64,000 nucleotides of DNA, taken from the NCBI GenBank assembly GCA_004375895.1, contig SOJW01000069.1, forward strand, positions 2,114 to 66,113, read 5' to 3'. Origin of the DNA: Candidatus Stahliibacteriota bacterium. Its GTDB lineage: Bacteria > Hydrothermota > Tepidihabitantia > B3-TA06. Shown one piece after another: positions 33,435-53,052 of this stretch; within the stretch, counting starts at the first letter, position 1; each line of letters starts with the position of its first letter. A program made the translations under genes and the position numbers. The notes under the pieces are model-generated. The model was not told the DNA's origin, searched no databases, and saw only the letters and a program-made list of their open reading frames with translations.

Positions 33435-33541
33435 AATTCCCTCCTTATTAAGGGTTGTTTTTGAAGCTGCGGAATAATACGTCATTTTGGGATGTTTGTC
33501 AAGTCCTTGACAAATGAATGGAAACGGTCATAATTGAAACT

Positions 33542-35464: not shown

Positions 35465-37579
35465 ATGTCGCGAATGAACTTAAAATCTCTTGACTTAAAA
35501 AAGGCTTACTCCTCGGACTTTGACAACTCATTACGTGATTTTTATATACCCGCACTAGAAGCATCGATTGAGTACAACCGGCTTGCAGGATTTTTCTCAT
35601 CCACAAGTTTAGCGATCGCTGCAAGAGGAGTTCTAGGTTTAATTAGGAATGGTGGCACGATGAGACTGATAGCTTCTCCCCAATTGAGCAAAAGGGATCT
35701 TGAGATTATCTTGGATTCTGAAGAGAGAAGAGAAGAATACATAAGTAAAAGAATGCTGGAAGATCTGGCGAGATTAGAAGATGAATTTGTCAAAGATCAC
35801 GTTTTTGCTCTTGGCTGGATGGTTGCCAACAGAAAGCTTGAGATTCGGATCGCTGTGCCATACGATGAGGAGGGAAAACTTTTAAGCTATGAAGAGGTTC
35901 AACAGCGAGGGGTTTTTCATCAAAAAGTGGGTATCCTGAAAGACTCTGAGGGGAATCTGATAACCTTCAGTGGGTCCGTTAATGAGACTGCCAAGGCTTG
36001 GCTAGACAACATTGAAGAGTTTAAGGTTTTTCGGGATTGGGAACCTTCAGAGGAAGATTATGTGGGAGCTGATGTTTCAAAGTTCAACAAGTTTTGGAAT
36101 GATCAATCTCCAAGGGTCAGAATCATGGATGTTCCTAAGGCAGTCGAAAGGAAGCTAATAGAAATCGCTCCAGCGAATGTTGACAAAATCGACTTAGAGA
36201 GATGGTGCAAAACGCAAAAGAGGAAGCCACAGCTTTTTCAACACCAACAAGCTGCTATCGAAGCTTGGTTAAAGAACGGGATGAGGGGACTTTTCGAAAT
36301 GGCAACCGGCACGGGGAAAACCTTCGCAGCTTTAGGTTGCTTGGATAAAGCATCTAAAACAACCCAGAAGCTCATAGTGGTTATAGCTTGCCCCTATCAC
36401 CATTTAATTGAGCAATGGATAAAGGAAATCGAAAAATTCGGTGTTGAAACTGATAAATTAATCGTTGCGGATGCTACCAATCAATATTGGAGGAACGAGT
36501 TGGCCGATTCGCTGATGGATATTTCATTGGGACATAAAACAAAAGTTATGGCGATGACGACGCACCGCACATTCTCCTCACCGGCTTTCAGAAAGATAAT
36601 CCAAAGTAATAAACAGGATTCCACTGCTCTCTTAATCGCCGACGAGGTTCACGGTATAGGGGCTGAGAAAAGCCAAGAGGGACTCATTGATGAATATGAT
36701 CTAAGATTAGGTTTGAGTGCCACGCCTAGAAGATGGTTCGATAGTCCAGGTACAGAGTTGATATATGATTATTTCGGGGGAGTTGTTTATGAATTTGGAT
36801 TGAAGAAAGCCATCAACACTCTAAACCCGGATACAGATCAAGCCTACCTTACTCCTTATCGATATAGATCAAGATTTGTCTCTTTGACTGAGGAAGAGTT
36901 AGAGGAATACCATGAAAAGACGAGACGAATTGTAATGAATCTCAATAAAACCGAAACTGAAGAACAAGCAAAGGCAATTCTGGATATTTTAATGTTTCAA
37001 AGAGCAAATATTGTCAAGAATGCTCTGGGAAAGTATCAGGTTCTTGAGGAAATCCTCGATGAGTTAAGGGAATCTATAAGATGGACATTAATCTATTGCA
37101 GCCCCGAACAGATCGATGAAGTAATGGAGATAGTCAATCGCCGTGGCATTGCCGCACATCGTTTTACAATGGAGGAAGGAACTTCTCCCGAAAAGAAATA
37201 TGGATGGATCTCAGAGAGAGAGCATCTTCTGGAGGAATTTGCGGAAGGCAAGTACAAGATTCTGGTTGCTATGAAATGTTTGGATGAAGGTGTGGATGTT
37301 CCACCCGCAAGGATCGCTATCTTGATGGCAAGTAGTGGGAACCCTAGGGAGTACATCCAACGTATCGGAAGAGTCATAAGAAGATACCCTGGCAAAAGTG
37401 AAGCTCTCATATACGATGTTGTCACTTCTCCTTCTTTAAGTAACCTTCCATCGGAATTAAAGGAGATGGAGAAAAAGATCTTCGAGAAGGAATTAAAAAG
37501 GTATGAGGAGATAGCGAAGATCGCTCTCAACAGAGCTGAGGCATTAACCCTTATATGTGACATAAAGGAAAAACTGTAG
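35465..37579 (+). CDS. PLD-nuclease/SF2 DExH helicase fusion (PbeA-like)
   Basis: FHQKVGI...FSGSVN, MATGTGKT, DEVH, GLSATP, LDEGVDVP, QRIGRVIR. Confidence 0.9.
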   Translation: MSRMNLKSLDLKKAYSSDFDNSLRDFYIPALEASIEYNRLAGFFSSTSLAIAARGVLGLIRNGGTMRLIASPQLSKRDLEIILDSEERREEYISKRMLEDLARLEDEFVKDHVFALGWMVANRKLEIRIAVPYDEEGKLLSYEEVQQRGVFHQKVGILKDSEGNLITFSGSVNETAKAWLDNIEEFKVFRDWEPSEEDYVGADVSKFNKFWNDQSPRVRIMDVPKAVERKLIEIAPANVDKIDLERWCKTQKRKPQLFQHQQAAIEAWLKNGMRGLFEMATGTGKTFAALGCLDKASKTTQKLIVVIACPYHHLIEQWIKEIEKFGVETDKLIVADATNQYWRNELADSLMDISLGHKTKVMAMTTHRTFSSPAFRKIIQSNKQDSTALLIADEVHGIGAEKSQEGLIDEYDLRLGLSATPRRWFDSPGTELIYDYFGGVVYEFGLKKAINTLNPDTDQAYLTPYRYRSRFVSLTEEELEEYHEKTRRIVMNLNKTETEEQAKAILDILMFQRANIVKNALGKYQVLEEILDELRESIRWTLIYCSPEQIDEVMEIVNRRGIAAHRFTMEEGTSPEKKYGWISEREHLLEEFAEGKYKILVAMKCLDEGVDVPPARIAILMASSGNPREYIQRIGRVIRRYPGKSEALIYDVVTSPSLSNLPSELKEMEKKIFEKELKRYEEIAKIALNRAEALTLICDIKEKL

Positions 37580-37590
37580 GGAGATGTAAA

Positions 37591-37797
37591 ATGAGTAACG
37601 GCAAGATTAAAGTGCTCAATCCACGGATTATAGAAATCATAAAACAGAACTGTGGAAAGGATAAAGTAATAAGCAAATTCTTGATAGATTTACTCTACGA
37701 AGAATTCGAACACTCAGGACAGTGGTGGTGGGCAGAGACTTACAAGGATAGGATAAAAACATATTCGGCAAGATGGAGTAGTCCCAATGAGGATTGA
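37591..37797 (+). CDS. Small protein (PbeB-like position)
   Basis: SD GGAG; 68 aa; overlaps the next gene. Confidence 0.75.
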   Translation: MSNGKIKVLNPRIIEIIKQNCGKDKVISKFLIDLLYEEFEHSGQWWWAETYKDRIKTYSARWSSPNED

Positions 37798-39760
37798 GAG
37801 GATACTACTCAAAAATTATCGTCAATTCAAAGATATGGAGATTCCGTTCACCAAGAAAACCGACAATGATCTACACATAATTATAGGGAAAAATGGGGCA
37901 GGGAAAACAAACATCTTGAATGCCATCAATTGGTGTTTGTATAATAAAGAGCCTCACTTGTCGAAAAGCTCGAAGCGATTGCCCCTTTTGAACCTTATGA
38001 CAATACAAGAAACTAGCCAAGTAGGCAGCCACAAAGTTATCGTAGAGGTATGGACAAGAACTGAAAGTGGCAGCCGCATTAAGTTCAAAAGACTCGCTCG
38101 TTATCGGGTACACGAAGAGGGCGGCGAACCTATGCTTCAGGATACGAACTTTGAGGTGGAAATCAGCGGTGGGAAAGAGGGTACAGATTTCCAGAAAAAT
38201 GAAAAAGCCAAGCCTTATGTTGAGCGCTTTGTACCTGAAGGAATCAGAGAGTTCTACTTTTTCGATGGAGACAGACTTGATGTATACTTTAAGGAGGTTA
38301 CTGAACAGAGAATACAGCACGAAATCTTCAAAATATCCCAGATCGACTTGCTAGATATAGTTTCAAGGGGAATAGAAAAAACCCTAAAGGATATCAGAAA
38401 TGAAGCCGGGAAAATGAATCCGGTCATAGACAAGAAACGAGAAGAGTTGGAGGAAAAGGAAGACAGGCTTGCGGAAGCGGAGCAAAAAATAGAAACCTGT
38501 GAGAAAGAGATTTCTAGAGCAAATGTTAAAGTCAAAGAATTAGGAGAGAAACTTGAAGAATTACCTGACGTAGAGGTGCTACAAAACAGAAGAGAAGAAC
38601 TTAAAAAACGTAAAGAAAAAAAGAAGAATTTAAGAGCTACGAAGCTACAGGAAAAGAAAGATCTCTTGCTAGAGTATAGCAAGATTATAAGGCTGTGGCC
38701 AGCAATAAAAACCACTTTAGAAGTTATTGACGAAGAAAGAAAAAAGAAAACAATCCCGCCGCGTATAGCTAAAGAGGTTCTGGAGGAAATACTCCAGAAC
38801 AATACTTGCACTATTTGTGGGAACACTTTAGATGCGGCAGCCAAAAATCATGTAAGGGACTTGCTTAAGAAAATTAAAGTCAGATCTGATGTGGCTTACG
38901 AACTTACAAAAATGGAAACCCCTTTACGCGAATCCAAGGACGAATTGAAAGGTTTCGAGGAGAAATTAATTAAGGTGACACATGAACTTGTAGGGTACGA
39001 AGAAGACCTTGATGCGATAGAGAGAGAAATCAACAAGATAGATAAGCAGATGAGTGGCTTCGACGATGTTTCAAAAATAAAAATAAGAGGATGGAGCGAA
39101 GACCTTAGGAAATTTGAAGCTTTAGAAAACGAAGAACGGGAGAAGCTAGGTAGTTTGAAAGCTGAGAAGAAGAGACTCCTCTCTGAAGTCAATCAACTAA
39201 AAGGAGATCTTGATACAGAACTGCGTAAGGAAACCAAAGCTGTAAAGTTAAAGAAGCAAATAGATTTCTGTGCAAGGGCTTTAGAAATAGCGAATAAGAC
39301 GAAAACCATGGTAATGACAGGAACAAGAGACAGAGTAGAGGAAGCGACAAAGAAGTTGTTCTTTAGACTATTATGGAAAAAAGAGACCTACGGGGATGTC
39401 AAGATACACGAGAATTATGAGCTAGAGGTAATCCATTCAATGGGCTACTCATGTTTAGGGTCATTGGGTGCAGGAGAAAGACAATTACTGGCTATTTCCT
39501 TTACCTTAGCATTGCATCAAGTTTCCGGTTTCGATTCGGCAATTCTAATAGATACCCCCGTAGCGAGGCTCTCTGATGAACATCGAGAGAACTTCGGTAA
39601 GATCTTTTCTGAAGTTAGCACTGACAAGCAGACGATATTGCTATTTACCCCTGACGAGTACTCAGAGGACATAAGCAAGCACCTAGATGTAAAGGCTAGC
39701 ACAAGATATCTCCTTAAATTATCTGAAGACGAGAAAGAAACCCAACTGGTGGTGCTGTAA
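37787..39760 (+). CDS. SMC/Rad50-like ABC ATPase (DndD/PbeC-like)
   Basis: GKNGAGKT, FFDGD, coiled coil with CTICG hook, LGAGE, ILIDTPVARLS. Confidence 0.9.
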   Translation: MRIERILLKNYRQFKDMEIPFTKKTDNDLHIIIGKNGAGKTNILNAINWCLYNKEPHLSKSSKRLPLLNLMTIQETSQVGSHKVIVEVWTRTESGSRIKFKRLARYRVHEEGGEPMLQDTNFEVEISGGKEGTDFQKNEKAKPYVERFVPEGIREFYFFDGDRLDVYFKEVTEQRIQHEIFKISQIDLLDIVSRGIEKTLKDIRNEAGKMNPVIDKKREELEEKEDRLAEAEQKIETCEKEISRANVKVKELGEKLEELPDVEVLQNRREELKKRKEKKKNLRATKLQEKKDLLLEYSKIIRLWPAIKTTLEVIDEERKKKTIPPRIAKEVLEEILQNNTCTICGNTLDAAAKNHVRDLLKKIKVRSDVAYELTKMETPLRESKDELKGFEEKLIKVTHELVGYEEDLDAIEREINKIDKQMSGFDDVSKIKIRGWSEDLRKFEALENEEREKLGSLKAEKKRLLSEVNQLKGDLDTELRKETKAVKLKKQIDFCARALEIANKTKTMVMTGTRDRVEEATKKLFFRLLWKKETYGDVKIHENYELEVIHSMGYSCLGSLGAGERQLLAISFTLALHQVSGFDSAILIDTPVARLSDEHRENFGKIFSEVSTDKQTILLFTPDEYSEDISKHLDVKASTRYLLKLSEDEKETQLVVL

Positions 39761-40200
39761 TGGCAAAAGGTCCTGATAGGCTCTATTACGTTATAGCTGA
39801 GGATGACAAAGCTCTGTACGAGAGATTAAATGAAGAGTTTCAAAAAAGAATGAGCAATAAGAATCAGTTTCTCTTAGCTATGGCTGTGGGATTCAAAGAA
39901 GGGAATTTTCGTTCTTTTGGGAAAAAGGTGAGTTTTGTTCGAACTGAGTATCTAAATGATGAAGACAAAGCTTTAATCAATTCCGTTGCGATAAAAGAAA
40001 CGGGAGGTGTAGAGGTGCTCTCGAAAACGGAAGAAGTGTTCAGAATAGCTGAAGGTTATGCTCACGGAGGAATCAGATTACTGAATACTCAGATCACTTC
40101 CAAACAGTTTGGTTCTTTCTTTAAGCAATTTGAGAAGGAGGTGGTTGAAATCTATAGGGGATTGGATTTAGATGATGAAAAAGAGAATCCTTCTAGTTGA
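39760..40200 (+). CDS. DndE/PbeD-like small protein
   Basis: FLLAMAVG...IAEGYAHGGIRLL pattern; TAATG coupling to the ATPase. Confidence 0.7.
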   Translation: MAKGPDRLYYVIAEDDKALYERLNEEFQKRMSNKNQFLLAMAVGFKEGNFRSFGKKVSFVRTEYLNDEDKALINSVAIKETGGVEVLSKTEEVFRIAEGYAHGGIRLLNTQITSKQFGSFFKQFEKEVVEIYRGLDLDDEKENPSS

Positions 40201-41428
40201 ACCTGATTTTCCGATCCCCGCTAAAAGCAAGAACCACAAGAACTTTCTCCCCATAGGGCTGTTGAAGATAGCGTCGTATTTGAGAGACAATAGGATCCAA
40301 GTACAACTTGTGAGGGGTGTACCTAAAGATTTGCAGAAGGCGTCTGAAATAAGAGAGTTTAAACCTAAAGAAATTTGGGTAACTTCGTTATTTACATATT
40401 GGGCAAGCTTCGTAAAGGAGTCTGTTCACTACTATAAAAAAATGTTCCCGCGAGCCAAGATTGTTGTTGGCGGAATCTATGCTTCTTTGTTTTCAAGGGA
40501 TGAGGTAAAAGAGTATACTGGATGTAACGAGGTGCACCAAGGAATAATCCCGGGGGCAGAAAAATACCCTCCGGCGTATGATCTTTTAGAAAACGCAAAT
40601 CCTCATCCAATTGATTACCAAATAATCCATGCCTCAAGGGGCTGCGAGAGGCATTGTACCTTCTGTGGGACATGGAAGATAGAACCGGAATTCATTCCTA
40701 AGGAGAGCATAAAGGACGAAATACACTTGGTGAAGCTGGTTTTTTACGACAACAACTTCCTGATGAATCCGTACATTGAGAACATATTGGGAGAGCTTAT
40801 GGATCTGAAACAAAAAAAAGAAATACTGTGGTGTGAGAGCCAATCTGGATTCGATGGAAGGATACTCCTTGAAAACCCTCACTTGGCAACGATGCTTAAG
40901 AAAGCAGGTTTTAGGTATCCTCGTATCGCGTGGGACGGAAGATACGACGAACACCCTCAAATAAAAAGTCAACTAGATGCGCTAAGAGAGGCGGGTTATC
41001 GTTCTAAGGACATCTATGTATTTATGCTTTATAATTGGCATGCACCCTTTGAGGAAATGGAAAAGAAACGATTGAAATGCTGGGATTGGAAAGTGCAAAT
41101 CGCGGATTGTAGGTTCAGACCTCTATCCCAATTATATGATAACTATAATCCGCGGGCAAAAGAAGGACAGCCGTCTAGCGATTATTATATTCACGAGGGA
41201 TGGACTGATGCGTTTGTAAGACAATTTCGAAGGAATGTGCGGGAACAAAACATTTGCGTTAGGCAAGAATTAGACTTTTATTCTTCTAGTTGTGAGCATA
41301 AAAAGTTGGATAGGGGAAGTGCAAGAGTAGTAAAAACTTTGAAAGGCAGACGGAGTAAAGAACGATTCCTGAAGGCTAGAGGTATAAGAGACTACTGGTT
41401 CCCAGGTGAAGTCAGATACCCCTTATGA
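40172..41428 (+). CDS. Cobalamin-binding-domain radical SAM enzyme
   Basis: PIGLLKIASYL and VGGIYASL (B12-like domain); SRGCERHCTFC (CxxxCxxC); YDNNFL. Confidence 0.9.
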   Translation: MMKKRILLVEPDFPIPAKSKNHKNFLPIGLLKIASYLRDNRIQVQLVRGVPKDLQKASEIREFKPKEIWVTSLFTYWASFVKESVHYYKKMFPRAKIVVGGIYASLFSRDEVKEYTGCNEVHQGIIPGAEKYPPAYDLLENANPHPIDYQIIHASRGCERHCTFCGTWKIEPEFIPKESIKDEIHLVKLVFYDNNFLMNPYIENILGELMDLKQKKEILWCESQSGFDGRILLENPHLATMLKKAGFRYPRIAWDGRYDEHPQIKSQLDALREAGYRSKDIYVFMLYNWHAPFEEMEKKRLKCWDWKVQIADCRFRPLSQLYDNYNPRAKEGQPSSDYYIHEGWTDAFVRQFRRNVREQNICVRQELDFYSSSCEHKKLDRGSARVVKTLKGRRSKERFLKARGIRDYWFPGEVRYPL

Positions 41429-41886: not shown

Positions 41887-43263
41887 CTAGGCCTTGAACT
41901 TGTCCGAAAGGGGATACACCCTTTGTTTGGCGTGATCCCTCTGGAACAGATTCAGCTGGAAGAAGTAGGCCGACATGAATAAGGTACGGGCTATCTGGGT
42001 GGCGAAGCCTTCCTCCCCGGAGTAGCTGGTGATGAACCGCCACCAGCGCTTCAGGATGTTTTTCCAGGAGTAGTACACCCGGTTCACCCGTTCAAAGGCT
42101 TTAAACACGTCGTCCGACCCCACCCCTTTGGGCATGTGCACCAGATGGTCGCCTTCGTAATGGGAAAGATCCTTGTCGAAGATGCGCCCCTCCGCATTCA
42201 CCTTGCGGTGGAAGGGTGTACCTTTTATGGGTATGGAGATGGAGAGCAGTATGGCGCTGGGATCGATCTCCTCCAGATGCTCTGGCAGGCTCTCGTAGTA
42301 CTCCGGGGTATCCTCGTCAAGCCCCAGCATCACCCCGGTGAAGGTCATGATCCTGCGTCTCTTGAGCTTTTCGAACAGCTCCTTGTACTCCTCCACCCGG
42401 TTCTGTTTCTTGTGAACGGACAGGAGGCTGGGCTCGTTAAGGGACTCCAGGCCCAAAAAAGCTAGCCCGGCACGCGCCTTGACCAAAAGGTTCACAAACT
42501 CGTCGTCGTGCAGACAGTCGAAGCTGAACTGGAACCCCACCCCCCACATCCTGAGTTTGGCGATCTCCCTCACAACTTCCTTGGCGTATTCTATATCACC
42601 GCCGAAGTTGTTGTCGTGAAGCATCGCCACCTTGCGTTTGAGGAAGGGGAGCTTGGATGTAGCCGTAAGGTCGCGGATCACGTCCCTCACCGGCCGCTTG
42701 CGGAACGGGGCGTTCTGGATGGTGAGCTGGCAGAAGCTGCACTTGTAGGGACACCCCCGGGTGGCCTCGGTCACCACGGGCACGGAAAAGTCCGGCTCAA
42801 TAAGGTCGTATCGCGGTGGCGGGATATTATCAAGGGGTGCCCCGAAGGGAGCTTCGTAAACCTTCTTCGACTTCCCTGCGACCAGATCCCTGACCACCTG
42901 GGGCCAGATACGTTCGGCCTCGCCCACCACTGTTACGTTCATGTAGGGGATTACTTCCCGGGGGAAGGTGGAAGGGTATCTGCCACCCGCCACCACGATC
43001 TTGCCCTTCTCTCTGAACCTTTTGGCAACCTCGATGGCATGCGGGGCGCAGAAATCCATGAAGCTTAAGGCGATGATGTCCGCGTCGGTATCGTAATCAA
43101 TAGGCCTTACCATCTCGTGACGCAAACTCACCTCCACCGCAGGAGGGGTGAGGCCTGCCACCAACGCACCTGACAACGGCGGTGCCGGGGATCGGGCATA
43201 GTAAGCCTGCTTTTCGCCCAGATTCTGGAAAAGCACAATTATTTCAACTTTGGGTTTAGCCAT
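41887..43263 (-). CDS. B12-binding-domain radical SAM protein
   Basis: VVAGGRYPS, GEAE, TRGCPYKCSFC, DNNF, GLESL. Confidence 0.92.
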   Translation of the reverse strand: MAKPKVEIIVLFQNLGEKQAYYARSPAPPLSGALVAGLTPPAVEVSLRHEMVRPIDYDTDADIIALSFMDFCAPHAIEVAKRFREKGKIVVAGGRYPSTFPREVIPYMNVTVVGEAERIWPQVVRDLVAGKSKKVYEAPFGAPLDNIPPPRYDLIEPDFSVPVVTEATRGCPYKCSFCQLTIQNAPFRKRPVRDVIRDLTATSKLPFLKRKVAMLHDNNFGGDIEYAKEVVREIAKLRMWGVGFQFSFDCLHDDEFVNLLVKARAGLAFLGLESLNEPSLLSVHKKQNRVEEYKELFEKLKRRRIMTFTGVMLGLDEDTPEYYESLPEHLEEIDPSAILLSISIPIKGTPFHRKVNAEGRIFDKDLSHYEGDHLVHMPKGVGSDDVFKAFERVNRVYYSWKNILKRWWRFITSYSGEEGFATQIARTLFMSAYFFQLNLFQRDHAKQRVYPLSDKFKA

Positions 43264-43272
43264 AAATGCCTC

Positions 43273-44076
43273 TCAGTCGCGCAACTTACGCGCAATCTTT
43301 CTCATTGTCATTTCGTTTAACCCTGGTAGGAGCCCCTTGAAGACTGCCAGGGCTTTGCCTTCCAGGGTCATAACCAGATCCCTTTTCCCTCTTTCAATTG
43401 CCTTGACGATGGCTGCCGCCACCTTGGGGGCGGGGCGGTAGGGATGTCGAGGCCGGTGTCCGCCCCCTACGTTCTTTTCCTTTTCAAACATCTCTGTCTG
43501 GACATAGCCGGGGCAGACAATCATCACCCGCACCCCGGTCTTTCGTATCGCCTGTTCTGCCCGCAGGCTCTGGCTTACCGCCATAAGGCCGGCCTTGCTG
43601 GAGCTGTAGGTAGCAAGGTAGGGTATGCCATGCAGACCGGCAACCGAAGAGATGTTGACGATCAAGCCCTTACCCTGCCTTTTCATAACGGGAAGCACCT
43701 CGTACATGCAGCGCAGCGCCCCGAAGAAGTTGACCTCGAATACGTCCTGGAAATCCTCGACGCTTACCCTTGCCGTTTCCCCATAGACCGCAGTACCCGC
43801 GTTATTTACCATAATGTCGGTCCCTCCCAGACGATCCACGCAGCTCTTGACGAGATTTGCTACATCTTTTTTAACCCTCACGTCGCATTTTACCACAAGA
43901 GGGGTTGGAGCTTGGGGGAACTCGGAGGTGATACGGGCAGCCACCTGACGTAACCTCTCCAGTCTCCGGGCCGCCAGTACCACCACCGCGCCTTTGCGGG
44001 CGAACTCTGCGGCAAGGGCCGCTCCCAGTCCTGACGACGCACCGGTTACCACTACCCGACTGCCTTCAATTCTCAT
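43273..44076 (-). CDS. SDR-family oxidoreductase
   Basis: TGASSGLG, NNAG, YSSSK. Confidence 0.95.
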   Translation of the reverse strand: MRIEGSRVVVTGASSGLGAALAAEFARKGAVVVLAARRLERLRQVAARITSEFPQAPTPLVVKCDVRVKKDVANLVKSCVDRLGGTDIMVNNAGTAVYGETARVSVEDFQDVFEVNFFGALRCMYEVLPVMKRQGKGLIVNISSVAGLHGIPYLATYSSSKAGLMAVSQSLRAEQAIRKTGVRVMIVCPGYVQTEMFEKEKNVGGGHRPRHPYRPAPKVAAAIVKAIERGKRDLVMTLEGKALAVFKGLLPGLNEMTMRKIARKLRD

Positions 44077-45853
44077 TCCGCTTCCCCGGTTTTTTGTAAA
44101 GGGAAAGGATGCGTTTGGCGTAGCGCTTGAGGATCATTTTTCGCCGGAGCTTAAGAGTGGGGGTAAGCAGCCCGTTCTCTATGGTGAACTTCTCCGGTAT
44201 CAGGGCGAACGCCCTGGCTTGTTCGTGATGCGCCAGCCCAACATTCACCTCTTCTATCTCATGCTCGATGAGTTCGGTGATCTTGCTTGACTCCAAAAGC
44301 GAGGGATAGTCATCAAAAGGAATGTTGTTGTCCCCGGCGTACTTCTCAACCGATTCCTGGTGGGGAACGAGGAGGGCTACCAGGTATTTCCTTTTCTCGC
44401 CGAAGATCATGGCCTGCTCGACGTATGGGCTATGGGTGATTTTTGCCTCGATGGGCGCGGGCGCGATATTCGCCCCGTATGAGGTGACGATTAGCTCCTT
44501 TATCCTGCCGGTTATGATGAGGTTGCCTTTCTTGTCGAACCTGCCCTGATCGCCGGTGTGGAACCAGCCGTCCTTGTCTATAACCTTGGCCGTCTCGGCG
44601 GGTTTGTTGAGATAGCCCTTCATCACGTTGGGGCCTTTGACCAGGATCTCGGAGTTCTTCCCGATCCTCACCTCGACCCCCTCAAGGGGTTTACCCACCG
44701 TGCCCAGCACGTTATCTTCAATCGTATTACAGCAAACCACGGGCGAGGTTTCGGTGAGACCGTAACCCTGCAGGATGTTGAATCCCAGGACATAGAACAC
44801 TTTTGCAATCTTCTTGTCCAGTGGTGCTCCCCCGGAGAAAACCATGCGCAGCTTCCCCCCGCCGATCTTGCGGAATTTTGACCCTACGACAGCATCGTAG
44901 AAAAGATGTCTTATCCACAGCCCCAGCGGTACTTTCTGGCTCCTGTACTTGAGATTGGCATAGGTATTGAGGTTCCTTATGGCGGAAGCCACCAGTATCT
45001 TTTGAAGGCCCGGGCCTTCCATTACCCTTTTGGTAACCTCATGATGGACTTTTTCCAGTACCCGGGGTACGGCAAGCATTATGGTGGGACGGATAGTGGC
45101 CACGTCCTGGGCAATAGTGGTCAGGTTTTCAGCAAAGGCGATACTGCCTCCCAGGAACAGCATGGAGTAACAACAGCAGGTACGCTCTAGCATGTGGCAT
45201 AGAGGTAGGTAGGAAACCACAACGTCGTGGGAATTTCCGTGCACCACTTCTATGGCGCTTGTGGTATTGGTGACGATATTGTTGTGGGTAAGGATTACTC
45301 CTTTAGGATTCCCGGTCGTGCCCGAGGTATAGACGATGGTTGCGACATCATCCTTATCTACGGTGATCGGGGTGTCAATGGTAGAGTCAGATTTTTTCTT
45401 CACATCCTCAAAGCGCAGGAACTTGCTCTTGCTTTCCGCCTGCGAATCGTCAAACACCACCACTGTCTTAAGGGAAGGGAGTCTGTTCCGGATGCCGTCA
45501 ATCAGGGACAGGAGCTCGGCGTTCTCCACAAACAGCAGCTTGATCATGGAGTCTTTGATTATGAACCTTACCACGGGAGCAGGCAATGTATGGTAAATGG
45601 GGACAACAACGCCGCCCAGCTTGAGGGCTGCCAGGTCGGCCATAAGCCACTCCGGCCGGTTGTAGGAGAATATACCGACGCGATCCCCCTTGCCTATCCC
45701 TAACTTGCGAAGCCCTGCAGCGACCGCATCTACTGAATCGTTCAACTCCCCGTAGGTTATCGGCGAATACTTGCCTTCTTTCTTGTACAGAAGGGCGGTT
45801 CTCTGCGAATGTTTCCTCGCTGCGTCCAGAAAAGATTGATAGATTGTTTCCAT
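44066..45853 (-). CDS. Long-chain fatty acid-CoA ligase
   Basis: YTSGTTGNPKG, GYGLTETS, GWFHTGD, TPTLKLRR. Confidence 0.95.
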   Translation of the reverse strand: METIYQSFLDAARKHSQRTALLYKKEGKYSPITYGELNDSVDAVAAGLRKLGIGKGDRVGIFSYNRPEWLMADLAALKLGGVVVPIYHTLPAPVVRFIIKDSMIKLLFVENAELLSLIDGIRNRLPSLKTVVVFDDSQAESKSKFLRFEDVKKKSDSTIDTPITVDKDDVATIVYTSGTTGNPKGVILTHNNIVTNTTSAIEVVHGNSHDVVVSYLPLCHMLERTCCCYSMLFLGGSIAFAENLTTIAQDVATIRPTIMLAVPRVLEKVHHEVTKRVMEGPGLQKILVASAIRNLNTYANLKYRSQKVPLGLWIRHLFYDAVVGSKFRKIGGGKLRMVFSGGAPLDKKIAKVFYVLGFNILQGYGLTETSPVVCCNTIEDNVLGTVGKPLEGVEVRIGKNSEILVKGPNVMKGYLNKPAETAKVIDKDGWFHTGDQGRFDKKGNLIITGRIKELIVTSYGANIAPAPIEAKITHSPYVEQAMIFGEKRKYLVALLVPHQESVEKYAGDNNIPFDDYPSLLESSKITELIEHEIEEVNVGLAHHEQARAFALIPEKFTIENGLLTPTLKLRRKMILKRYAKRILSLYKKPGKRNEN

Positions 45854-45854
45854 A

Positions 45855-46937
45855 CTACTCAAGCCTCCATTTTTCTCCTATGGCCCTGAACTGCTCGAGA
45901 TATTGTGCCATGTTGCCCTCCACGGCATAAAAAAGGTTACGCAGGGGGACCATATCTATGTCAACCCTGCGACCGGACGGGAACGCAAGAGTCAAGGTTG
46001 GAGAAGCCTTTACTATACCTAATCTGATCGGGGCAAAACCCTGGGAGGAAGCCGCATTGTTAAATGAGTTGAGTTTGGATTCCGGAACCGTAAACACCAG
46101 CTCGAACTCGCCATGAAGCCCGGCTGCCATTGCCCAGGCAGGTGTGTCGGTAGCCTTACACAGCTTCAATGCCCGGGGATCAATCATCTTCTCCCAGTCA
46201 CACTCGATCTCGAACCCCAGCCCGTTGATCCGCATCAACTGATCCAGGGCGCTAAACAGCCCGTCGCTTGTATCCATGCACGATGAGGCGTACTCACTTA
46301 TAGTTTGACCTTCCTTCAGGCGGGCGATTGGTCGATACAGCTTCTCCGGGAAAACCTCATCGGGAAGCCCGGCAAGCCTGGCCGCTGCCAGGGCGTTGCC
46401 CGAACCTGCCGGTCCGGTGATGAAGACGCTATCTCCTTCCTTGCATCCGGTGCGCATCATCACCCTGTCCTTATCCACCAGCCCGAAAGCGCAACCGGTA
46501 AGCGAGATGGTGGGGGTGGTGTTTACATCTCCGCCCAGGATGTGTATCCCCAGCTTCTGGCAGGCGTCCTGCATGCCCCGGGCTACTGCGTCGGTGAAAG
46601 TCTGGTCTCTGGTCGGCTCCAGTGAGGTGGATATAACCAGCCCCACAGGATCGGCTCCCACCGCGGCCAGGTCGCTTACGGTGGCCATCACCGTGACCCA
46701 GCCCATGGTGTAGGGGTCTCTATAAAAACCGAGGAGGATCTCTTCGGCTATGGTGTCTATAGTTATCGCCAGATAGCGATGCAGATCACCTGCTATCTCC
46801 ACCAGCTCCGCGTCCGTCTGGTGGGATCGGTTTACTTGATGCGGGGCACGGGCAAAATGCCTGGCCCAGGAGTCTATGATGGCGTTTTCGGCTATCTGTT
46901 GCATGTCTTGCTTTTCACGGGCGTCATTACTATTCAT
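45855..46937 (-). CDS. ThiL-like (PurM superfamily) kinase
   Basis: SDLAAVGA, GGDVN, MDTSDGL, GEFELVFT; ATGA-coupled to the upstream kinase. Confidence 0.85.
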   Translation of the reverse strand: MNSNDAREKQDMQQIAENAIIDSWARHFARAPHQVNRSHQTDAELVEIAGDLHRYLAITIDTIAEEILLGFYRDPYTMGWVTVMATVSDLAAVGADPVGLVISTSLEPTRDQTFTDAVARGMQDACQKLGIHILGGDVNTTPTISLTGCAFGLVDKDRVMMRTGCKEGDSVFITGPAGSGNALAAARLAGLPDEVFPEKLYRPIARLKEGQTISEYASSCMDTSDGLFSALDQLMRINGLGFEIECDWEKMIDPRALKLCKATDTPAWAMAAGLHGEFELVFTVPESKLNSFNNAASSQGFAPIRLGIVKASPTLTLAFPSGRRVDIDMVPLRNLFYAVEGNMAQYLEQFRAIGEKWRLE

Positions 46938-47890
46938 AGGCAACACCTCACAGCTTTAGGGATAACTTTGAAACGAGCATTTCTCGTCCGGACCACCTCA
47001 CCGTCCAACTCTAAGGCGAATGTCCGATTGCTCTCGACAGTGAGGTGGGTAGCGCTCCAACAGTTGGTTCTGGGACGTCCTTGGAACCTGGCTTTGGCTA
47101 GACCTGCAATCAACCCAACCCTTTCCAGCATGGAAGTTCCTCCACAGAGATTGATGCCTAACTCTCCGTCGTCTGGTTTGATGGGAGTATCGTAACAGAA
47201 GTGGCCTGCGAAATGGGGATTCTTGATGATTCCTAGATTGGTCACCGGAAGCTTCTTGGGTTCCCCATCGTCAATAGAGAGCTGACAGGGTATGTCGTGA
47301 TAGGTAAACATCGCTTTCAGGGCACAGGCTACGATGGCAGCCTCTACAGAGATCTTCCGCGCCACCTTGATGAATCCGGAGCGTTCGTTAAAAAGAGCAT
47401 TAGCCTCAGCCGTAATGCCTATGCTGGCGTTTATGATGCAGAATTGGGTGTTCTGCATCCCTTCGAGGTACTGGTAGGATATCTGTATTACATCACATAG
47501 GAAAGCGTTCTTTGCATCGATCCTTACGGGTATTCCATTGATAAATGTCTGGGGCCGGAACGGCTTATGGAAATCGTTGCTCGAACCAAGCCCCACTGCA
47601 CCGAGAGTTATCCGGTTGTGTGCCCCCCTTTCGGTCATCACCGCATTGAGCAGAAGATTAACCGTCCCGTCCCCGCCTGCCGCTATAAGTAAGTTATCTC
47701 CGTCTCTTATAGCTCTACTCACATACTCCGCAAACCTCTGGGGCGAATCCGGCACCTCGGTTTTGAATCTTCCTATCCGCCTGCCCAACTCATCCTTGAC
47801 CTGCTCCCATCGCTTGAGTCCGGTACCGTAACTGCAGAAAGGGTTCAAAAGCACCATTGTGCCCGGTCTTTTCCGCATTTGTCTACTCAT
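46934..47890 (-). CDS. Diacylglycerol/sphingosine kinase family protein
   Basis: LLNP, AAGGDGTV, GSSNDF, LDGE. Confidence 0.92.
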   Translation of the reverse strand: MSRQMRKRPGTMVLLNPFCSYGTGLKRWEQVKDELGRRIGRFKTEVPDSPQRFAEYVSRAIRDGDNLLIAAGGDGTVNLLLNAVMTERGAHNRITLGAVGLGSSNDFHKPFRPQTFINGIPVRIDAKNAFLCDVIQISYQYLEGMQNTQFCIINASIGITAEANALFNERSGFIKVARKISVEAAIVACALKAMFTYHDIPCQLSIDDGEPKKLPVTNLGIIKNPHFAGHFCYDTPIKPDDGELGINLCGGTSMLERVGLIAGLAKARFQGRPRTNCWSATHLTVESNRTFALELDGEVVRTRNARFKVIPKAVRCCL

Positions 47891-47902
47891 TCGTTGCCAT
47901 CT

Positions 47903-48904
47903 CTACACCTGGGTTTTTTCCGGCCTGAGCCTTAAGACCAGCTCAAAGGCTCCGTAGAATACCGCCATGCACACTATCCATATCCAGTGGGGTCGCAGGG
48001 TGAGGACTATGGCCAGACAATAGAGGATAAACGCCCGTACCACGTTGGCTATGGGGGCGTGGGACTTTGCTTCGTCCCGGGTGAGGTGGATCTTGATCTG
48101 GGCAAAGATGTTTATGCCCAGGGCTATCACGAATACCACTATCCCCAAAAGTCTCAACAGATCAAGCTCTTTGAATCCAATCAGACATATCACCCAGCCG
48201 GTCAGGACGGCGATTGCCGCCGCCACCACGTCGCTGTAGATCGCGCCCGCAACCCACCCGAACGTCACCTGGAAGGTACGGTAACCGGTCTTGCGGTCCG
48301 CGGAGATGTCCTTGAAGTACCCCATGACCACGAAGTTGGCGTAGCCCGCGAAGACGGCAAGAATCGCCAGGAAGAAGGCAAGGTTGTACGGATCGCGGAG
48401 GTTGAAAAAGGTCCGCAGCTTATATCCCCGGTCCACCAGCCTTCCCATGATGGGCAAGAGCGCCACGATCCAGGAGTTCCAGGGCGGACCGCCCCACCAG
48501 GTTCGCTTGAGCCAGGTGTAAGTCAGGAGCCCTGCCACCGCCGCAACCCCGAAAACCAGAATCCAGTAGTTGAGATAGCTCATGATGGCAACCCCTGTCC
48601 CCAACCCGACCAGACTGGTGATTAAGACCTGCTTCCTGGTAATCACACCTCTTACCAGTGGCCTGTAGGGCGAGGAGATCGCATCGGTGTCGGTCTGGAA
48701 GCAATCGGTGAGCGCTTGGCCCAGGCCGTAGGAAAAAAACATAGGAATGAATCCCAGCACCAATCTCCACACTGGCTGGGATGGTATAAACGCCAGACCG
48801 ACAAGAGCTGCCGCCCCGGAAACAAACAAGAGGTAGGGCCGCATAGTGATGAGATAGGAACGGAAAAACCCGACGCTGAAGAAACGGTAAGGGGTCCTGT
48901 TCAT
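47903..48904 (-). CDS. UbiA-family prenyltransferase
   Basis: TMRP, TDCFQTDTD...RPL..G, FKDISAD; about 8 TM segments. Confidence 0.88.
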   Translation of the reverse strand: MNRTPYRFFSVGFFRSYLITMRPYLLFVSGAAALVGLAFIPSQPVWRLVLGFIPMFFSYGLGQALTDCFQTDTDAISSPYRPLVRGVITRKQVLITSLVGLGTGVAIMSYLNYWILVFGVAAVAGLLTYTWLKRTWWGGPPWNSWIVALLPIMGRLVDRGYKLRTFFNLRDPYNLAFFLAILAVFAGYANFVVMGYFKDISADRKTGYRTFQVTFGWVAGAIYSDVVAAAIAVLTGWVICLIGFKELDLLRLLGIVVFVIALGINIFAQIKIHLTRDEAKSHAPIANVVRAFILYCLAIVLTLRPHWIWIVCMAVFYGAFELVLRLRPEKTQV

Positions 48905-48905
48905 C

Positions 48906-50090
48906 TCAGATTATCCTCAGTTTCTTGCCTACGAGCTTGAACTTGTCCAGGGCCGTCTGCAACTCATCGGTGGAAAGGGAAGCCATTATGCTCACCCGGA
49001 TAAGGGCAGACCCCTTCGGTACCGCGGGGTAAACCACAGGATTAATAAATACCCCTTCCTTCTCCAATCCGCCGGTCAGTTTGAACGCCTTCCGGTCGTT
49101 GCCGATGAGAACGGGAATAATAGGGGTTATGGTTTCCTCAACCTCAAATCCCAGATCCTTCAACCCCTGTTTCATGAACTCTGTGTTCTTGTGTAGCCGC
49201 TCCAGCAGTTCGGGCTCTTCCTCGATGACCTCGAGGCAGGCCATTACCGTAGCCGCTACCGAAGGTGGCGAACTGGCCGAGAAGATGAAGGGACGGGACT
49301 GGAGACGCAGGAACGAGACCACCTCGCTGCTCGCGCCGGTAAAGCCTCCGGCTGAGCTCAATGTTTTGCTGAAGGTCCCGCACACCAGGTCGATCGCACC
49401 TTCCATGTCAAAATGTTCGAGGATTCCCCGTCCAGTCGCGCCCAGTGCGCCCGTACCGTGGGCGTCATCCACCATGATCTTTGCCTTATACTTGTCGGCC
49501 AGGCTCTTGATCTCAGGCAGGTTAGCGACCGATCCTTTCATGCTGAACACCCCGTCTGTGACGATGAGCTTGTTGGCCGAGCGTTTGCACTCGGAGAGCA
49601 TCTCCTCCAGACTCTTCATGTCGTTATGCTTGTATACCTTCACCTGTGCCCTGGAGAGCCGGCAGCCCTCCACGATGCTGGCGTGATTGAACTCGTCGCT
49701 CAGGATAACGTCCCCTTCTTCGGTCAGGGCGGTGATGGTGCCCATCATGGTCATGAACCCTGTGCTGAACACCACCGCGTCTTCGGTTCCCTTAAACCGA
49801 GCAAGCTCCCGTTCAAGTTTGTTATGAAGGCTGGTTGTACCTGTAAGAATCCTCGAGCTGCAGGCACCGGTGCCGAATTTCTTCACGGCCTTGATTGCCG
49901 CTTCGATTACTTTGGGGTGATTGGCAAGCCCCAGATAGTTGTTGGAACCGAGCATGATCATCTTTTTGCCACCCATGGTAACGGTAGGGGTGGCCGGAGG
50001 GTCGATCTCCCGGAGGTAGAAAAACTGGTTTAACGACTTAACTACTTTTACTTGAGCATTAAACTTGCGACACTTGGCAAAGAGATCCAT
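48906..50090 (-). CDS. Alpha-oxoamine synthase, serine palmitoyltransferase-like
   Basis: GSNNYLGL, NHASI, DGVFSM, DDAHG, GTFSKT, RPFIFSAS. Confidence 0.88.
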   Translation of the reverse strand: MDLFAKCRKFNAQVKVVKSLNQFFYLREIDPPATPTVTMGGKKMIMLGSNNYLGLANHPKVIEAAIKAVKKFGTGACSSRILTGTTSLHNKLERELARFKGTEDAVVFSTGFMTMMGTITALTEEGDVILSDEFNHASIVEGCRLSRAQVKVYKHNDMKSLEEMLSECKRSANKLIVTDGVFSMKGSVANLPEIKSLADKYKAKIMVDDAHGTGALGATGRGILEHFDMEGAIDLVCGTFSKTLSSAGGFTGASSEVVSFLRLQSRPFIFSASSPPSVAATVMACLEVIEEEPELLERLHKNTEFMKQGLKDLGFEVEETITPIIPVLIGNDRKAFKLTGGLEKEGVFINPVVYPAVPKGSALIRVSIMASLSTDELQTALDKFKLVGKKLRII

Positions 50091-50247: not shown

Positions 50248-50315
50248 TGCCATCCTCCTTATATTGAAATATAGGGAAAATATTAAACTTGTCAAGGGAA
50301 ATTTTCACACACCCT

Positions 50316-51429: not shown

Positions 51430-53052
51430 TTACTTCACAAGAAGCATCTTGGTAGTTTGTTTGAAACCGTCGGCTGTTGTCAACTCGCAGATGTAGATAC
51501 CGTTGCCGAGTTTTCTGCCCTGCTCGTCTCTTCCGTTCCAGGTTACGCTGTGGGTTCCCGGTTCGAGGGTTCCGTGAATCAGGGTAATAACCTTTTGTCC
51601 GACGGTGTTGTAGACGGAAACGTCCACCACGCTCTTGGTGGGGATACTGAAGGCTATATCTGTCTTCGAGCTGAAGGGATTGGGGTCGTTCTGAGCCAGG
51701 TAGAAGTTGGGGATGATCATGCCCTGCTGGTTGGGGCCGGGGACGACAGAAAGCCCTGGCACGATGTTGATGAACCGGCAAGCGTTGCCCTGCTGATCAA
51801 CCACCACCACGTGAAGGAACCAGTTGCATGTATCGGGAAGTGGGATGGGCATCGGCTGTGGATCAGGTCCGGGTCCACCGCCCACCGCGGTGTCAGGGCC
51901 GACGTGAGGTGTGTCTTCCTTGGGACAGATGATTAACATGTCGGTAAGAGTACCGGTAGGCCCTGCTCCGCTGAAGCCGCTTAAGCGGCCGGTGATTGGA
52001 TCCAGGTCTCCCCACTCTATCTCGCCTGTCCAGGGATCCATGAAATCCACCCTGATGGTGCCGTCGAAGTTGGGGGTGTTTACGATGGAGTTGAAGGTCA
52101 TCATGTGCCAGTTGTCGCTTCCCGGCCACTGCAGGCGAACCAGCACGTCCTGACACCTTTCCAGTTCGTTGCGGGCATCTTCCCAGTTGAACGGCTCGTC
52201 CCTCATCGTGTAGTTGTCGCCGTGATCTTTGAGCCATTTATCCAAGGCTTCCACGATGTCGTCCCACTGGGTTCCTCCAAGTAACGTGTCGGTGCCCGCC
52301 AGTTCGGCAAGGGAATCCACCAGATCATGAGCGCTCAGACCTCCGGCGACTTCTCCGTCTCCGGTGCCTTCGAAGTACTTCAGACACGCCGCCGCCGCCG
52401 TTGGCACGCAGTGCCAGGGGGAATGTGGCTGCTGAGATATGCCGGGGATTCCTTTCATGAAGGTATCCTGCTTGGGTTCAACGAATATGCTCACCGAATC
52501 GATGTCGTGGTAGAGATCGGTTACCATGACCCACAAGGTGTCGTTATGGATTGGCGTCCAGCTCACCACGGCGTCGCAGGGTGGAGTAGGATCGTAGTTG
52601 CGCTGCGTCTCTATGATCAGGGTATCTCCGCCCTGGATGATAGCCACGGCCTGGAACAGGATAACCATGTTCTGGGAGGGCACGATGTCGTGGGGGAAGA
52701 CGGTGGCCCAGCCGTCGCCTGCAGAAACTGCCGAGAGGTCCGTTGATGCGGAAGCCATAGGAGAGGACAGGGCTTCGTATCCATCACTATCGGTCCCGAA
52801 AAGGATCCAGGTCTGGCCCTGGTCTATGGAGTGGTAGAAATCCACCCTCTGGATCGTCTGTGCGCTATCAAGCACGTGGAGTCTGACCCTGCTTACGCGG
52901 CCCGCTCCTCCGATAAGGTTATGCCAGGGTTCGGCGAGAACCCAGTCCCCGACCGCGAGAACCGGCTCTCCGAACTGAGCCCACAGCGGCGCAGCAACCA
53001 ACATAATGATTGAGAGGACGAGCAGCAAGGTTCTTTTACGTTTTGGGAGCAT
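51430..53052 (-). CDS. Secreted protein with papain/C39-like peptidase domain and FlgD/T9SS-type tail
   Basis: Signal peptide; CVPTAAA...WHMMT...MDPW; QNDPNPF...GIYICEL. Confidence 0.8.
   Translation of the reverse strand: MLPKRKRTLLLVLSIIMLVAAPLWAQFGEPVLAVGDWVLAEPWHNLIGGAGRVSRVRLHVLDSAQTIQRVDFYHSIDQGQTWILFGTDSDGYEALSSPMASASTDLSAVSAGDGWATVFPHDIVPSQNMVILFQAVAIIQGGDTLIIETQRNYDPTPPCDAVVSWTPIHNDTLWVMVTDLYHDIDSVSIFVEPKQDTFMKGIPGISQQPHSPWHCVPTAAAACLKYFEGTGDGEVAGGLSAHDLVDSLAELAGTDTLLGGTQWDDIVEALDKWLKDHGDNYTMRDEPFNWEDARNELERCQDVLVRLQWPGSDNWHMMTFNSIVNTPNFDGTIRVDFMDPWTGEIEWGDLDPITGRLSGFSGAGPTGTLTDMLIICPKEDTPHVGPDTAVGGGPGPDPQPMPIPLPDTCNWFLHVVVVDQQGNACRFINIVPGLSVVPGPNQQGMIIPNFYLAQNDPNPFSSKTDIAFSIPTKSVVDVSVYNTVGQKVITLIHGTLEPGTHSVTWNGRDEQGRKLGNGIYICELTTADGFKQTTKMLLVK

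Follow-up and report, generated by a model that had tools for sequence, protein, structure and literature searches.

Seven co-oriented genes and the families they encode

The window analysed here, a stretch of 64,000 nucleotides (nt) of contig SOJW01000069.1 from a Candidatus Stahliibacteriota bacterium, carries on its minus strand an operon of seven genes (41887-50090) whose products may together build an unusual long-chain-base lipid of the cell envelope. According to the open reading frame (ORF) listing of the window, the seven genes are all co-oriented and follow one another, in gene order, with a 1-nt gap, a 12-nt gap, overlaps of 13, 8 and 11 nt and a 9-nt gap. The preliminary description of this DNA, which had reported gaps of at most 12 nt or overlaps throughout, was therefore correct on this point, and its family assignments of all seven genes are right by Pfam and NCBIfam. 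The first gene (48906-50090) encodes a Spt-like alpha-oxoamine synthase (AOS) of fold-type I, with 394 amino acids (aa; Pfam Aminotran_1_2, 219.7 bits). It is followed by a UbiA-superfamily membrane transferase (47903-48904, 333 aa; Pfam UbiA, PF01040, 81.3 bits, gathering cut-off 34.2), a DAGK_cat/YegS-type lipid kinase (46934-47890, 318 aa; DAGK_cat 56.9 bits, cut-off 23.6, and YegS_C 30.4 bits, cut-off 27) and a ThiL-like ATP-dependent kinase of the AIRS superfamily (45855-46946, 363 aa; Pfam AIRS 75.3 bits, plus AIRS_C). The last three genes encode a long-chain acyl-CoA ligase (44066-45862, 598 aa; AMP-binding 303.7 bits, AMP-binding_C_3 49 bits), a classical short-chain dehydrogenase/reductase (SDR) that is a candidate 3-keto reductase (43273-44076, 267 aa; adh_short 186.1 bits), and a radical S-adenosylmethionine (SAM) protein with an N-terminal B12-binding-type domain (41887-43263, 458 aa; Radical_SAM 49.1 bits, cut-off 29.5). 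A motif scan found the catalytic motifs expected for each family in all seven proteins, the first Asp-rich motif of UbiA being unusual in form.

The AOS appears to be of the lipid type, separate from Kbl and BioF. Its best NCBIfam model is Spt-CFB, with 463 bits, which does not reach the cut-off of 640; it scores 369.5 and 285.3 bits on other Spt models (NF047600 and relatives, cut-offs 500 and 670), 431 bits on the Kbl model (cut-off 460), 416.5 bits on the BioF model (cut-off 426) and 217.8 bits on the CqsA-type model, to be compared with the 463 bits on the Spt type. The closest match in the PDB is the serine palmitoyltransferase (SPT) of Sphingobacterium multivorum (8guh/3a2b, 343.5 bits, gap-free over 377 residues). 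The His, Asp-x-x-His, Ser and Arg residues find their counterparts in 8guh without gaps, and the lysine for pyridoxal 5'-phosphate (PLP) lies in GTFSK at 238, the motif to which it had been assigned before. The SPT residues to which passages of PMC10196870 assign roles, including the contacts with PLP and with the carboxylate, map one-to-one onto the operon AOS with the exception of the side-chain pocket loop. In this loop Ala79-Gly80-Ser81 of SPT corresponds to Cys-Ser-Ser, and SPT Met271 corresponds to Ile. The loop of the operon protein reads GTGACSSR, that is, S-S-R where Spt has G-S-R. S-S-R is present in 26 of the 27 AOS from clusters of the window's type (type A; the layouts are given below), and G-P-P in the AOS clade of the type-B clusters; the Spt-like protein encoded on contig C49 of the same genome has G-S-R, and Kbl has S-V-R. 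In cysteate acyltransferase the equivalent loop (Gly81-Ala82) touches cysteate, according to passages of PMC13692747. One related locus (L030:556-3162) carries a tandem pair of cluster-type AOS genes, whose products are 66% and 68% identical to that of the window, one with G-S-R and the other with S-S-R.

We also built an AOS tree of 46 rows, rooted on E. coli BioF. The Kbl of E. coli and that of the window's own genome formed a separate clade (support 99), and the type-A cluster AOS (27 rows, support 99) grouped with the Spt-like and cysteate-type paralogues of the same genome (89, open fork). Since the tree includes no experimentally proven Spt, this placement indicates an enzyme of the lipid type rather than Kbl or BioF, and not a proven Spt. 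The grouping with BioF or Kbl that had been considered beforehand did not occur. The earlier SPT label is supported by the best PDB match and by the position in the tree away from Kbl and BioF, and weakened by the score under the Spt cut-off and by the S-S-R loop.

The DAGK-type protein contains the GGDGT motif at 72. It scores 77.2 bits on TIGR00147, under the cut-off of 118.65, and its PDB matches, YegS and DgkB, are weak (∼30 bits). Sphingosine and ceramide kinases are members of the same DAGK_cat family. The genes for the DAGK-type and ThiL-like proteins overlap or abut both in the window (13 nt) and in the distant variant locus L015 described below.

Profile score, sequence comparison with the PDB and fold all place the ThiL-like protein closest to ThiL. 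It reaches 176.8 bits on TIGR01379, under the cut-off of 184.15, and its AF2 model (pLDDT 90.5) retrieves ThiL structures first (5cm7, E 7e-24), before SelD, HypE and PurM. An alignment places D45, D64, S91-D92, G138-G139 and D225 in columns common to the genome's ThiL; the metal-binding aspartates D45, D64, D92 and D225 are invariant and common to every AIRS protein of the alignment. At both its N and its C terminus, the protein extends beyond the genome's ThiL. Passages of PMC6416309 searched for the thiamine-contacting residues of ThiL name none. Besides the operon gene, the genome contains four further AIRS-family matches, one of which, on contig C57, exceeds the ThiL cut-off with 247.9 bits. 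The operon gene is thus not the only ThiL of the genome, an outcome that the preliminary description had named as speaking against its view, and it is a paralogue distinct from the housekeeping ThiL. Contig C59 encodes another AIRS protein, whose ThiL score is weak (73.5 bits); ThiE and ThiD flank it, and an IS200-like transposase gene also lies between them (L019:10482-13624). The same contig carries a 578-aa ORF with LytB/IspH (274.1 bits) and a C-terminal UbiA domain (52.7 bits), an apparent IspH-UbiA fusion (L019:4094-5830). C59 was considered as a second related cluster and rejected, as its AIRS and UbiA matches belong to a thiamine/IspH context.

The AF2 model of the UbiA protein (pLDDT 82.6) has nine long helices. 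Its nearest solved folds are those of DGGGP synthase (DGGGPS; 7bpu/6m31, TMq 0.60-0.61, 15% identity), with the M. jannaschii enzyme as the best match (E 4.6e-6), followed by archaeal UbiA homologues; DGGGPS, AfUbiA and ApUbiA together span TMq 0.57-0.68. Its matches to DGGGPS-type NCBIfam models are weak (62, 50 and 46 bits, cut-offs 269-353); on the DGGGP synthase models NF009521 and NF009522 it scores 50.1 against 296 and 46.3 against 353, so neither cut-off is reached. In an alignment of 13 orthologues the second motif, KDIxADxxTxYxT, is invariant and provides D199xxxD203 (DISAD at 199 in the window copy). Among 8000 candidates scored, 2118 were relatives at E<=1e-20. The best 120 of these have 59-99% identity, and their names are all generic or automatic, namely 'hypothetical', 'UbiA family prenyltransferase', '4-hydroxybenzoate polyprenyltransferase' and 'geranylgeranylglycerol-phosphate geranylgeranyltransferase'.

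For the ligase, the best NCBIfam models are a FadD11-type model (353.6 bits) and long-chain-fatty-acid-CoA ligase (307.1 bits), both under their cut-offs, and the protein carries SGTTGNPK at 180. The SDR shows the motifs TGASSGLG, NAG and YSSSK, and its nearest PDB matches are generic ketoacyl reductases. The radical SAM protein has CPYKCSFC at 171; its B12-binding match (24.1 bits) lies under the cut-off of 32.1, and its Atlas neighbours are unnamed clusters of B12-binding radical SAM proteins. No close solved relative was found in the PDB (best E 3.9e-5). This protein is 68-76% identical across loci and is, together with the AOS, the most conserved of the set.

The window belongs to a genome of 2.2 Mb in 75 contigs (89.9% complete), which contains four AOS paralogues, an unusual number for this size. 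In addition to the operon copy, contig C49 encodes a Spt-like AOS (547.5 bits on Spt-CFB) followed by a 384-aa GNAT protein (L016:5675-8010), which is the layout expected for Spt plus a ceramide synthase. Contig C51 encodes a true Kbl (591.5 bits, above cut-off; L017:6883-8130), and on contig C69 an AOS adjoins a cysteate synthase (515.7 bits, above cut-off), a pair of the sulfonolipid type (L018:7449-10028). The host thus appears to make sphingolipid-type and sulfonolipid-type bases already, and the presence of these three systems elsewhere in the genome makes the operon AOS an extra, dedicated copy. The genome further contains three UbiA-family genes and two polyprenyl diphosphate synthases; no match to PcrB/GGGPS was found in this 89.9%-complete assembly.

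Conservation, variant layouts and surroundings of the cluster

A scan of a genome collection with the ThiL-like protein returned 10 loci, and in six of them the same genes occur in the same order. All seven genes are present in L007, L008, L010, L011, L012 and L013, the radical SAM gene of L011 being cut by the contig end and the AOS gene of L013 by the contig start. L006 has the set without the ligase, L009 stops after the fourth gene, and L015 is the distant variant treated below. A Zixibacteria locus, L014, was rejected as a natural four-gene form, since the piece is bounded by two runs of 100 N. The carriers are labelled Cloacimonadota, WOR-3, Eisenbacteria, Zixibacteria, a 'Bacteroidales' metagenome-assembled genome (MAG) and a Deltaproteobacteria MAG, and Aminicenantes MAGs carry the cluster too. 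Protein identities are still 45-76% across loci whose G+C ranges from 0.39 to 0.68. The recurrence of the same genes in the same order indicates that the arrangement is not due to chance, and the absence of conservation that the preliminary description had allowed for was not observed, as the cluster recurs in several candidate phyla and many metagenome contigs.

This synteny bears on the alternative that unrelated housekeeping genes of thiamine, biotin, threonine and quinone metabolism happen to lie side by side. Every family of the operon does have housekeeping members, and the ThiL, BioF and Kbl scores come near their cut-offs. However, a better ThiL, a true Kbl and two more UbiA genes are encoded elsewhere in the genome, no thi or bio genes are found among the neighbours of the operon in the window, as had been stated before, and the recurrence of gene set and order over this range of G+C contradicts the idea, which we consider hardly credible.

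Within the same phylum, a ThiL-like orthologue (E<=1e-60) was detected in five of the 201 sampled genomes, that of the window (G000) included, and in none of the two other genomes of the genus and none of the six of the family. The four other carriers keep the gene order. L107 and L108 have all seven genes and L106 lacks the ligase, all three being of the window's form with SDR and radical SAM; L106 and L108 probably duplicate the records of L006 and L008 and are not counted as independent. In the complete genome G185, the AOS gene is followed by two ORFs (363 and 345 aa) and then by the UbiA, DAGK and ThiL-like genes. The 8.2-kb stretch also recurs in public sequencing runs of several studies, mostly labelled marine sediment, with no RNA run listed.

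A broader view came from scanning metagenomes with aligned ThiL-like proteins, which gave at least 423 confirmed relatives, with 80 loci kept for mapping. In 49 loci the sequence upstream of the ThiL-like gene spans 2.1 kb or more; of these, UbiA is present in 49, DAGK in 48 and both in 48; in the lone exception, L029, the UbiA gene directly precedes the ThiL-like gene. The UbiA, DAGK and ThiL-like genes thus constitute the invariant core of the cluster. The remaining genes are frequent but exchangeable: in the 21 loci with wide flanks on both sides we found the AOS in 15, a radical SAM orthologue in 11, the SDR in nine and the ligase in three, either AOS or radical SAM being present in 19 and neither in two (L081 and L099). 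The seven-gene operon of the preliminary description is thus real and recurrent, but it is one of several layouts around the trio, with a ligase in only 3 of 21.

Four layouts were distinguished. Layout A, that of the window, reads AOS-UbiA-DAGK-ThiL-(ligase)-SDR-radical SAM. In layout A', AOS-UbiA-DAGK-ThiL is followed or interrupted by genes for a MacB/FtsX permease, an ABC ATPase, a DUF3419 protein and a GNAT protein; DUF3419 is the betaine lipid synthase domain, according to passages of PMC10685587. Layout B corresponds to SDR-UbiA-DAGK-ThiL-AOS-radical SAM. Layout C reads DAGK-UbiA-ThiL-SDR-(141-aa unknown)-SDR-radical SAM-Omp85-(251-aa unknown)-COQ7-like, with no AOS within ∼9 kb. The AOS-less loci are of type C (such as L071, L072, L061 and L085) and also include L081 and L099. 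The GNAT, DUF3419, MacB permease, Omp85, COQ7-like and DUF4345 proteins and two unknown families of the variant clusters have no tblastn match in the window's genome; for the variant-cluster GNAT (E<=1e-5), this includes the GNAT of C49. A histidine kinase and an OmpR-type regulator lie beside the cluster in 25 loci, as judged by BLAST clustering with representatives checked by Pfam.

A more distant variant was found in a Deltaproteobacteria-labelled MAG (L015:275-9005), where genes for a diiron desaturase-like protein, an AOS, a SAM methyltransferase and a 752-aa phosphoenolpyruvate-utilizing/PPDK-like protein accompany the DAGK and ThiL-like genes. This cluster has no radical SAM orthologue, and its genome (G202, completeness not given) has no UbiA-profile match at E<=1e-10. 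An oxygen-dependent desaturase together with a methyltransferase might here take the place of the B12 radical SAM protein. As L015 keeps the AOS with both kinases, no UbiA of this family being found in its genome, it ties the kinases to the AOS product. The kinase pair is the common denominator of all these clusters, travelling with UbiA, with the AOS, or with both.

The distribution could also be read as that of a diffusible signal, or of a specialised metabolite akin to an antibiotic, by analogy with the alpha-hydroxyketone autoinducers that the AOS CqsA makes and that a histidine kinase encoded nearby senses. The patchy occurrence in the phylum (5 of 201 genomes, 0 of 2 in the genus, 0 of 6 in the family), the two-component genes adjacent to the cluster in 25 related loci and the ABC exporters of variant clusters would all suit such a product. 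However, the AOS reaches less than half the score on the CqsA-type model that it obtains on the Spt type (217.8 against 463), the window has no such two-component system, which elsewhere also occurs beside AOS-less clusters, the MacB-type and Omp85 partners are explained at least equally well by trafficking of envelope lipids, and the ligase is of the long-chain type. We consider a signal or antibiotic highly unlikely.

Concerning the surroundings of the operon in the window, a tentative promoter-like match to the sigma-70 consensus (TTGACA-16-TATATT, 11 of 12 positions) lies on the minus strand at 50268-50295, ∼180 nt 5' of the first start codon; the region holds 10 such sites against 6.2 expected. 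The upstream gene (51430-53052) encodes a 540-aa secreted-type protein that starts with a hydrophobic segment and has a FlgD_ig domain (36.6 bits) at its C terminus, and is closed by a strong terminator-like hairpin at 51319-51294. A riboswitch as the explanation of the 1.3-kb gap upstream of the operon was ruled out, no Rfam family (gathering cut-off) and no tRNA being found in the whole window. We also rejected the operon as a foreign island, its G+C (0.547) being near that of the genome (0.529); the low-G+C stretch is the adjacent defence island. This stretch, directly downstream of the operon (35465-41428), has a G+C of 0.40-0.43, compared with 0.53 for the whole genome. Two of its genes match the Pbe defence family of PADLOC, PbeA with 781.9 bits and PbeC with 598.5 bits; after them come a 146-aa ORF and a 418-aa B12-binding/radical SAM-type protein without a PADLOC match. 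The stretch looks like an acquired defence island. Two large ORFs further on (30327-34879), of 1052 aa on the minus strand and 453 aa on the plus strand, have no Pfam or PADLOC match.

A predicted route to a modified long-chain-base lipid

We propose, as a plausible reading that falls somewhat short of probable, that the product of the operon is a modified lipid of the long-chain-base (sphingoid) type belonging to the cell envelope, for which the two kinases would build a lipid diphosphate that UbiA uses. The acyl-CoA ligase would activate a free long-chain fatty acid, and the Spt-like AOS would condense the acyl-CoA with a small amino acid, serine being the leading candidate, to give a 2-amino-3-keto lipid whose ketone the SDR would reduce to the amino alcohol. 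The DAGK-type kinase would then phosphorylate a hydroxyl of the lipid alcohol. ThiL converts a monophosphate ester to a diphosphate, and its paralogue could likewise add the second phosphate here. UbiA would couple the lipid diphosphate to a second partner with loss of the diphosphate. Finally, the radical SAM protein may tailor the chain; the simplest such modification would be C-methylation of an unactivated carbon in the absence of oxygen. In this scheme every substrate, the order of the steps and the product are inferred from sequence; what the comparison supports is the functional unity of UbiA, DAGK and the ThiL-like protein, the lipid type of the AOS, and the status of the AOS and ThiL-like genes as paralogues. 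The GNAT, DUF3419, MacB/FtsX ABC exporter and Omp85 proteins of the variant clusters fit an exported envelope lipid.

Several observations weigh against this proposal. Its chief weakness is that known UbiA enzymes take allylic or ribosyl diphosphates: to our knowledge, the characterised members use an allylic prenyl diphosphate or phosphoribosyl pyrophosphate as electrophile, and a saturated sphingoid 1-diphosphate is not an obvious donor. Moreover, the first UbiA motif is unusual, TDxFQxDTD being invariant in the 13 aligned sequences with Gln at the position of the middle Asp of the canonical motif, NDxxDxxxD. As to the AOS, a Ser in the pocket loop replaces the Gly of Spt and of the cysteate enzyme, a Ser being likewise found in Kbl; the protein stays under every NCBIfam equivalog cut-off; and the second, type-B clade has yet another loop, GPP. 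The combination of a pocket loop unlike that of Spt with scores under the cut-offs makes the use of serine uncertain. In addition, the trio occurs without an AOS within ∼9 kb in 6 of the 21 wide-flank loci, and the complete genome G185 has no orthologue of the radical SAM protein (best identity 32%). The preliminary description had suggested that DAGK and the ThiL paralogue act in succession to supply UbiA; this suggestion gains comparative support from the occurrence of the trio in 48 of 49 loci.

A narrower form of the proposal, in which UbiA uses a sphingoid-type, non-isoprenoid lipid diphosphate as alkyl donor and thereby forms a new class of ether- or amine-linked sphingoid lipid, seems to us rather doubtful. 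The neighbouring amine, or an allylic position, could assist the loss of diphosphate from such a donor. If true, the AIRS superfamily would gain its first lipid-phosphate kinase, and the UbiA family its first member that takes a sphingoid donor.

The same difficulty with the donor raises the possibility that the kinases activate a (poly)prenol or another fatty alcohol, and that UbiA prenylates the AOS-derived amino alcohol on O or N. The module would then parallel the phytol salvage of plants and cyanobacteria with enzymes that are not homologous, and the alkylation might resemble that by DGGGPS on a hydroxyl of a lipid phosphate. The invariance of the trio while the AOS is missing from 6 of the 21 wide-flank loci, type C among them, agrees with this, as do the nearest folds and profiles of UbiA, which are those of O-prenyltransferases (DGGGPS and chlorophyll synthase), and the preference of UbiA chemistry for allylic donors. 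Salvage of prenols by two kinases, feeding enzymes that depend on prenyl diphosphates, is an established scheme according to passages of PMC9782597. However, the two polyprenyl diphosphate synthases of the genome would make the kinases superfluous for the supply of prenyl diphosphate, no gene of the cluster would yield a free prenol, and L015 has the AOS with the DAGK and ThiL-like genes, no UbiA of this family being found in G202. DAGK kinases in sphingolipid contexts act on the base or on ceramide. We regard the activation of a prenol as possible, though unlikely.

The resemblance of UbiA to DGGGPS suggests a further alternative. DAGK could produce a long-chain-base 1-phosphate, which UbiA would alkylate with a cellular prenyl diphosphate to give an ether lipid with two tails, analogous to ceramide phosphate. 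The head-group phosphate would next be turned into a diphosphate by the ThiL-like enzyme, for the attachment of a head group. A base 1-phosphate would indeed resemble geranylgeranylglyceryl phosphate, with a phosphate head, a free OH or NH2 beside it and one long tail; DGGGPS is the nearest fold of UbiA; prenyl diphosphate synthases are present in the genome; and, as the operon has no N-acyltransferase, a second tail needs another source. On the other hand, UbiA scores far under the DGGGPS cut-offs (50 against 296, 46 against 353), the overlap of the DAGK gene with the ThiL-like gene that follows it suggests consecutive steps, and the window's operon encodes no head-group transferase. An order of reactions in which UbiA acts between the two kinases is, in our view, decidedly unlikely.

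Relation to known systems

The comparison with related systems helps to delimit what is particular to this operon. With CqsA/CqsS signalling it shares an AOS that would join an acyl-CoA to a small amino acid, and a histidine kinase lies near many related loci; however, the AOS scores much lower on CqsA, the window has no sensor kinase, and five further enzymes would have no role in such a system. The ThiL-like protein has the fold of ThiL, its columns of metal-ligand Asp and a profile score near the cut-off. In contrast to ThiL, it is a second copy under that cut-off, has extended termini and no thi context, and is encoded beside lipid kinase and UbiA genes.

With archaeal DGGGP synthase, the operon UbiA shares the fold, DGGGPS being the nearest solved structure, and some orthologues are automatically named so; it differs by its 15% identity, by scores far under the cut-offs, and by its partners, an AOS and two kinases. 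These constant partners of UbiA argue against the automatically assigned DGGGP synthase role and for another one. In the FCB group, homologues of 'archaeal lipid' genes have been described as co-localized with GGGPS (Villanueva et al. 2020, passages of PMC7852524), whereas no PcrB/GGGPS was found in the 89.9%-complete genome of the window. Caution about automatic names therefore bears on claims that FCB-group bacteria make archaeal ether lipids.

Phytol and prenol salvage by VTE5 and VTE6 follows the same logic as that proposed for the trio, from alcohol to monophosphate to diphosphate and then to a UbiA-family transferase; UbiA-family prenyltransferases consume the salvaged prenyl diphosphates. 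The operon kinases, of the DAGK_cat and AIRS/ThiL types, are presumably soluble and ATP-dependent, as is usual in their families, and not membrane kinases of the VTE5/VTE6 type. The context also differs, being one of amino-lipid genes in MAGs of non-photosynthetic, anaerobe-type bacteria. Passages of PMC9782597 give the genes of two-kinase prenol salvage as known only from plants and cyanobacteria. If our proposal is true, the operon would reach a lipid diphosphate by a new route, through kinases that are unrelated to the only ones known from prenol salvage, and the substrate range of the ThiL and UbiA families would be wider.

The bacterial sphingolipid pathway relies on Spt, bCerS and CerR, with a KDS reductase in Bacteroides. 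The operon likewise has a Spt-like AOS, a candidate keto-reductase and an acyl-CoA ligase. However, neither a GNAT ceramide synthase nor a CerR of the NDUFA9 type is present among its seven genes, its AOS lies under the Spt cut-off and has a different pocket loop, a separate Spt-like gene with a GNAT gene is found at C49, and UbiA, the ThiL-like kinase and the B12 radical SAM protein have no counterpart in the known pathway. According to passages of Ding et al. 2024 (PMC11334938), Spt-like genes of Cloacimonadota do not lie beside bCerS or CerR genes. Loci of the kind described here may explain why these genes lack ceramide synthase neighbours, if they are of the operon type.

A literature search within one library of papers found no description of this gene combination or pathway, in agreement with the preliminary description, which knew of none. 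The carriers are uncultured bacteria of anoxic sediments with essentially unknown membrane lipids, and they may be a source of orphan lipids in environmental lipidomics; the conserved operon offers a concrete gene set to express and a product to look for. In our view it is an operon for the biosynthesis of a lipid base in which the module for activation and coupling would be new. From its sequence, it would resemble the sphingolipid pathway at its start and prenol salvage with a UbiA transferase in its core, while being a member of neither.

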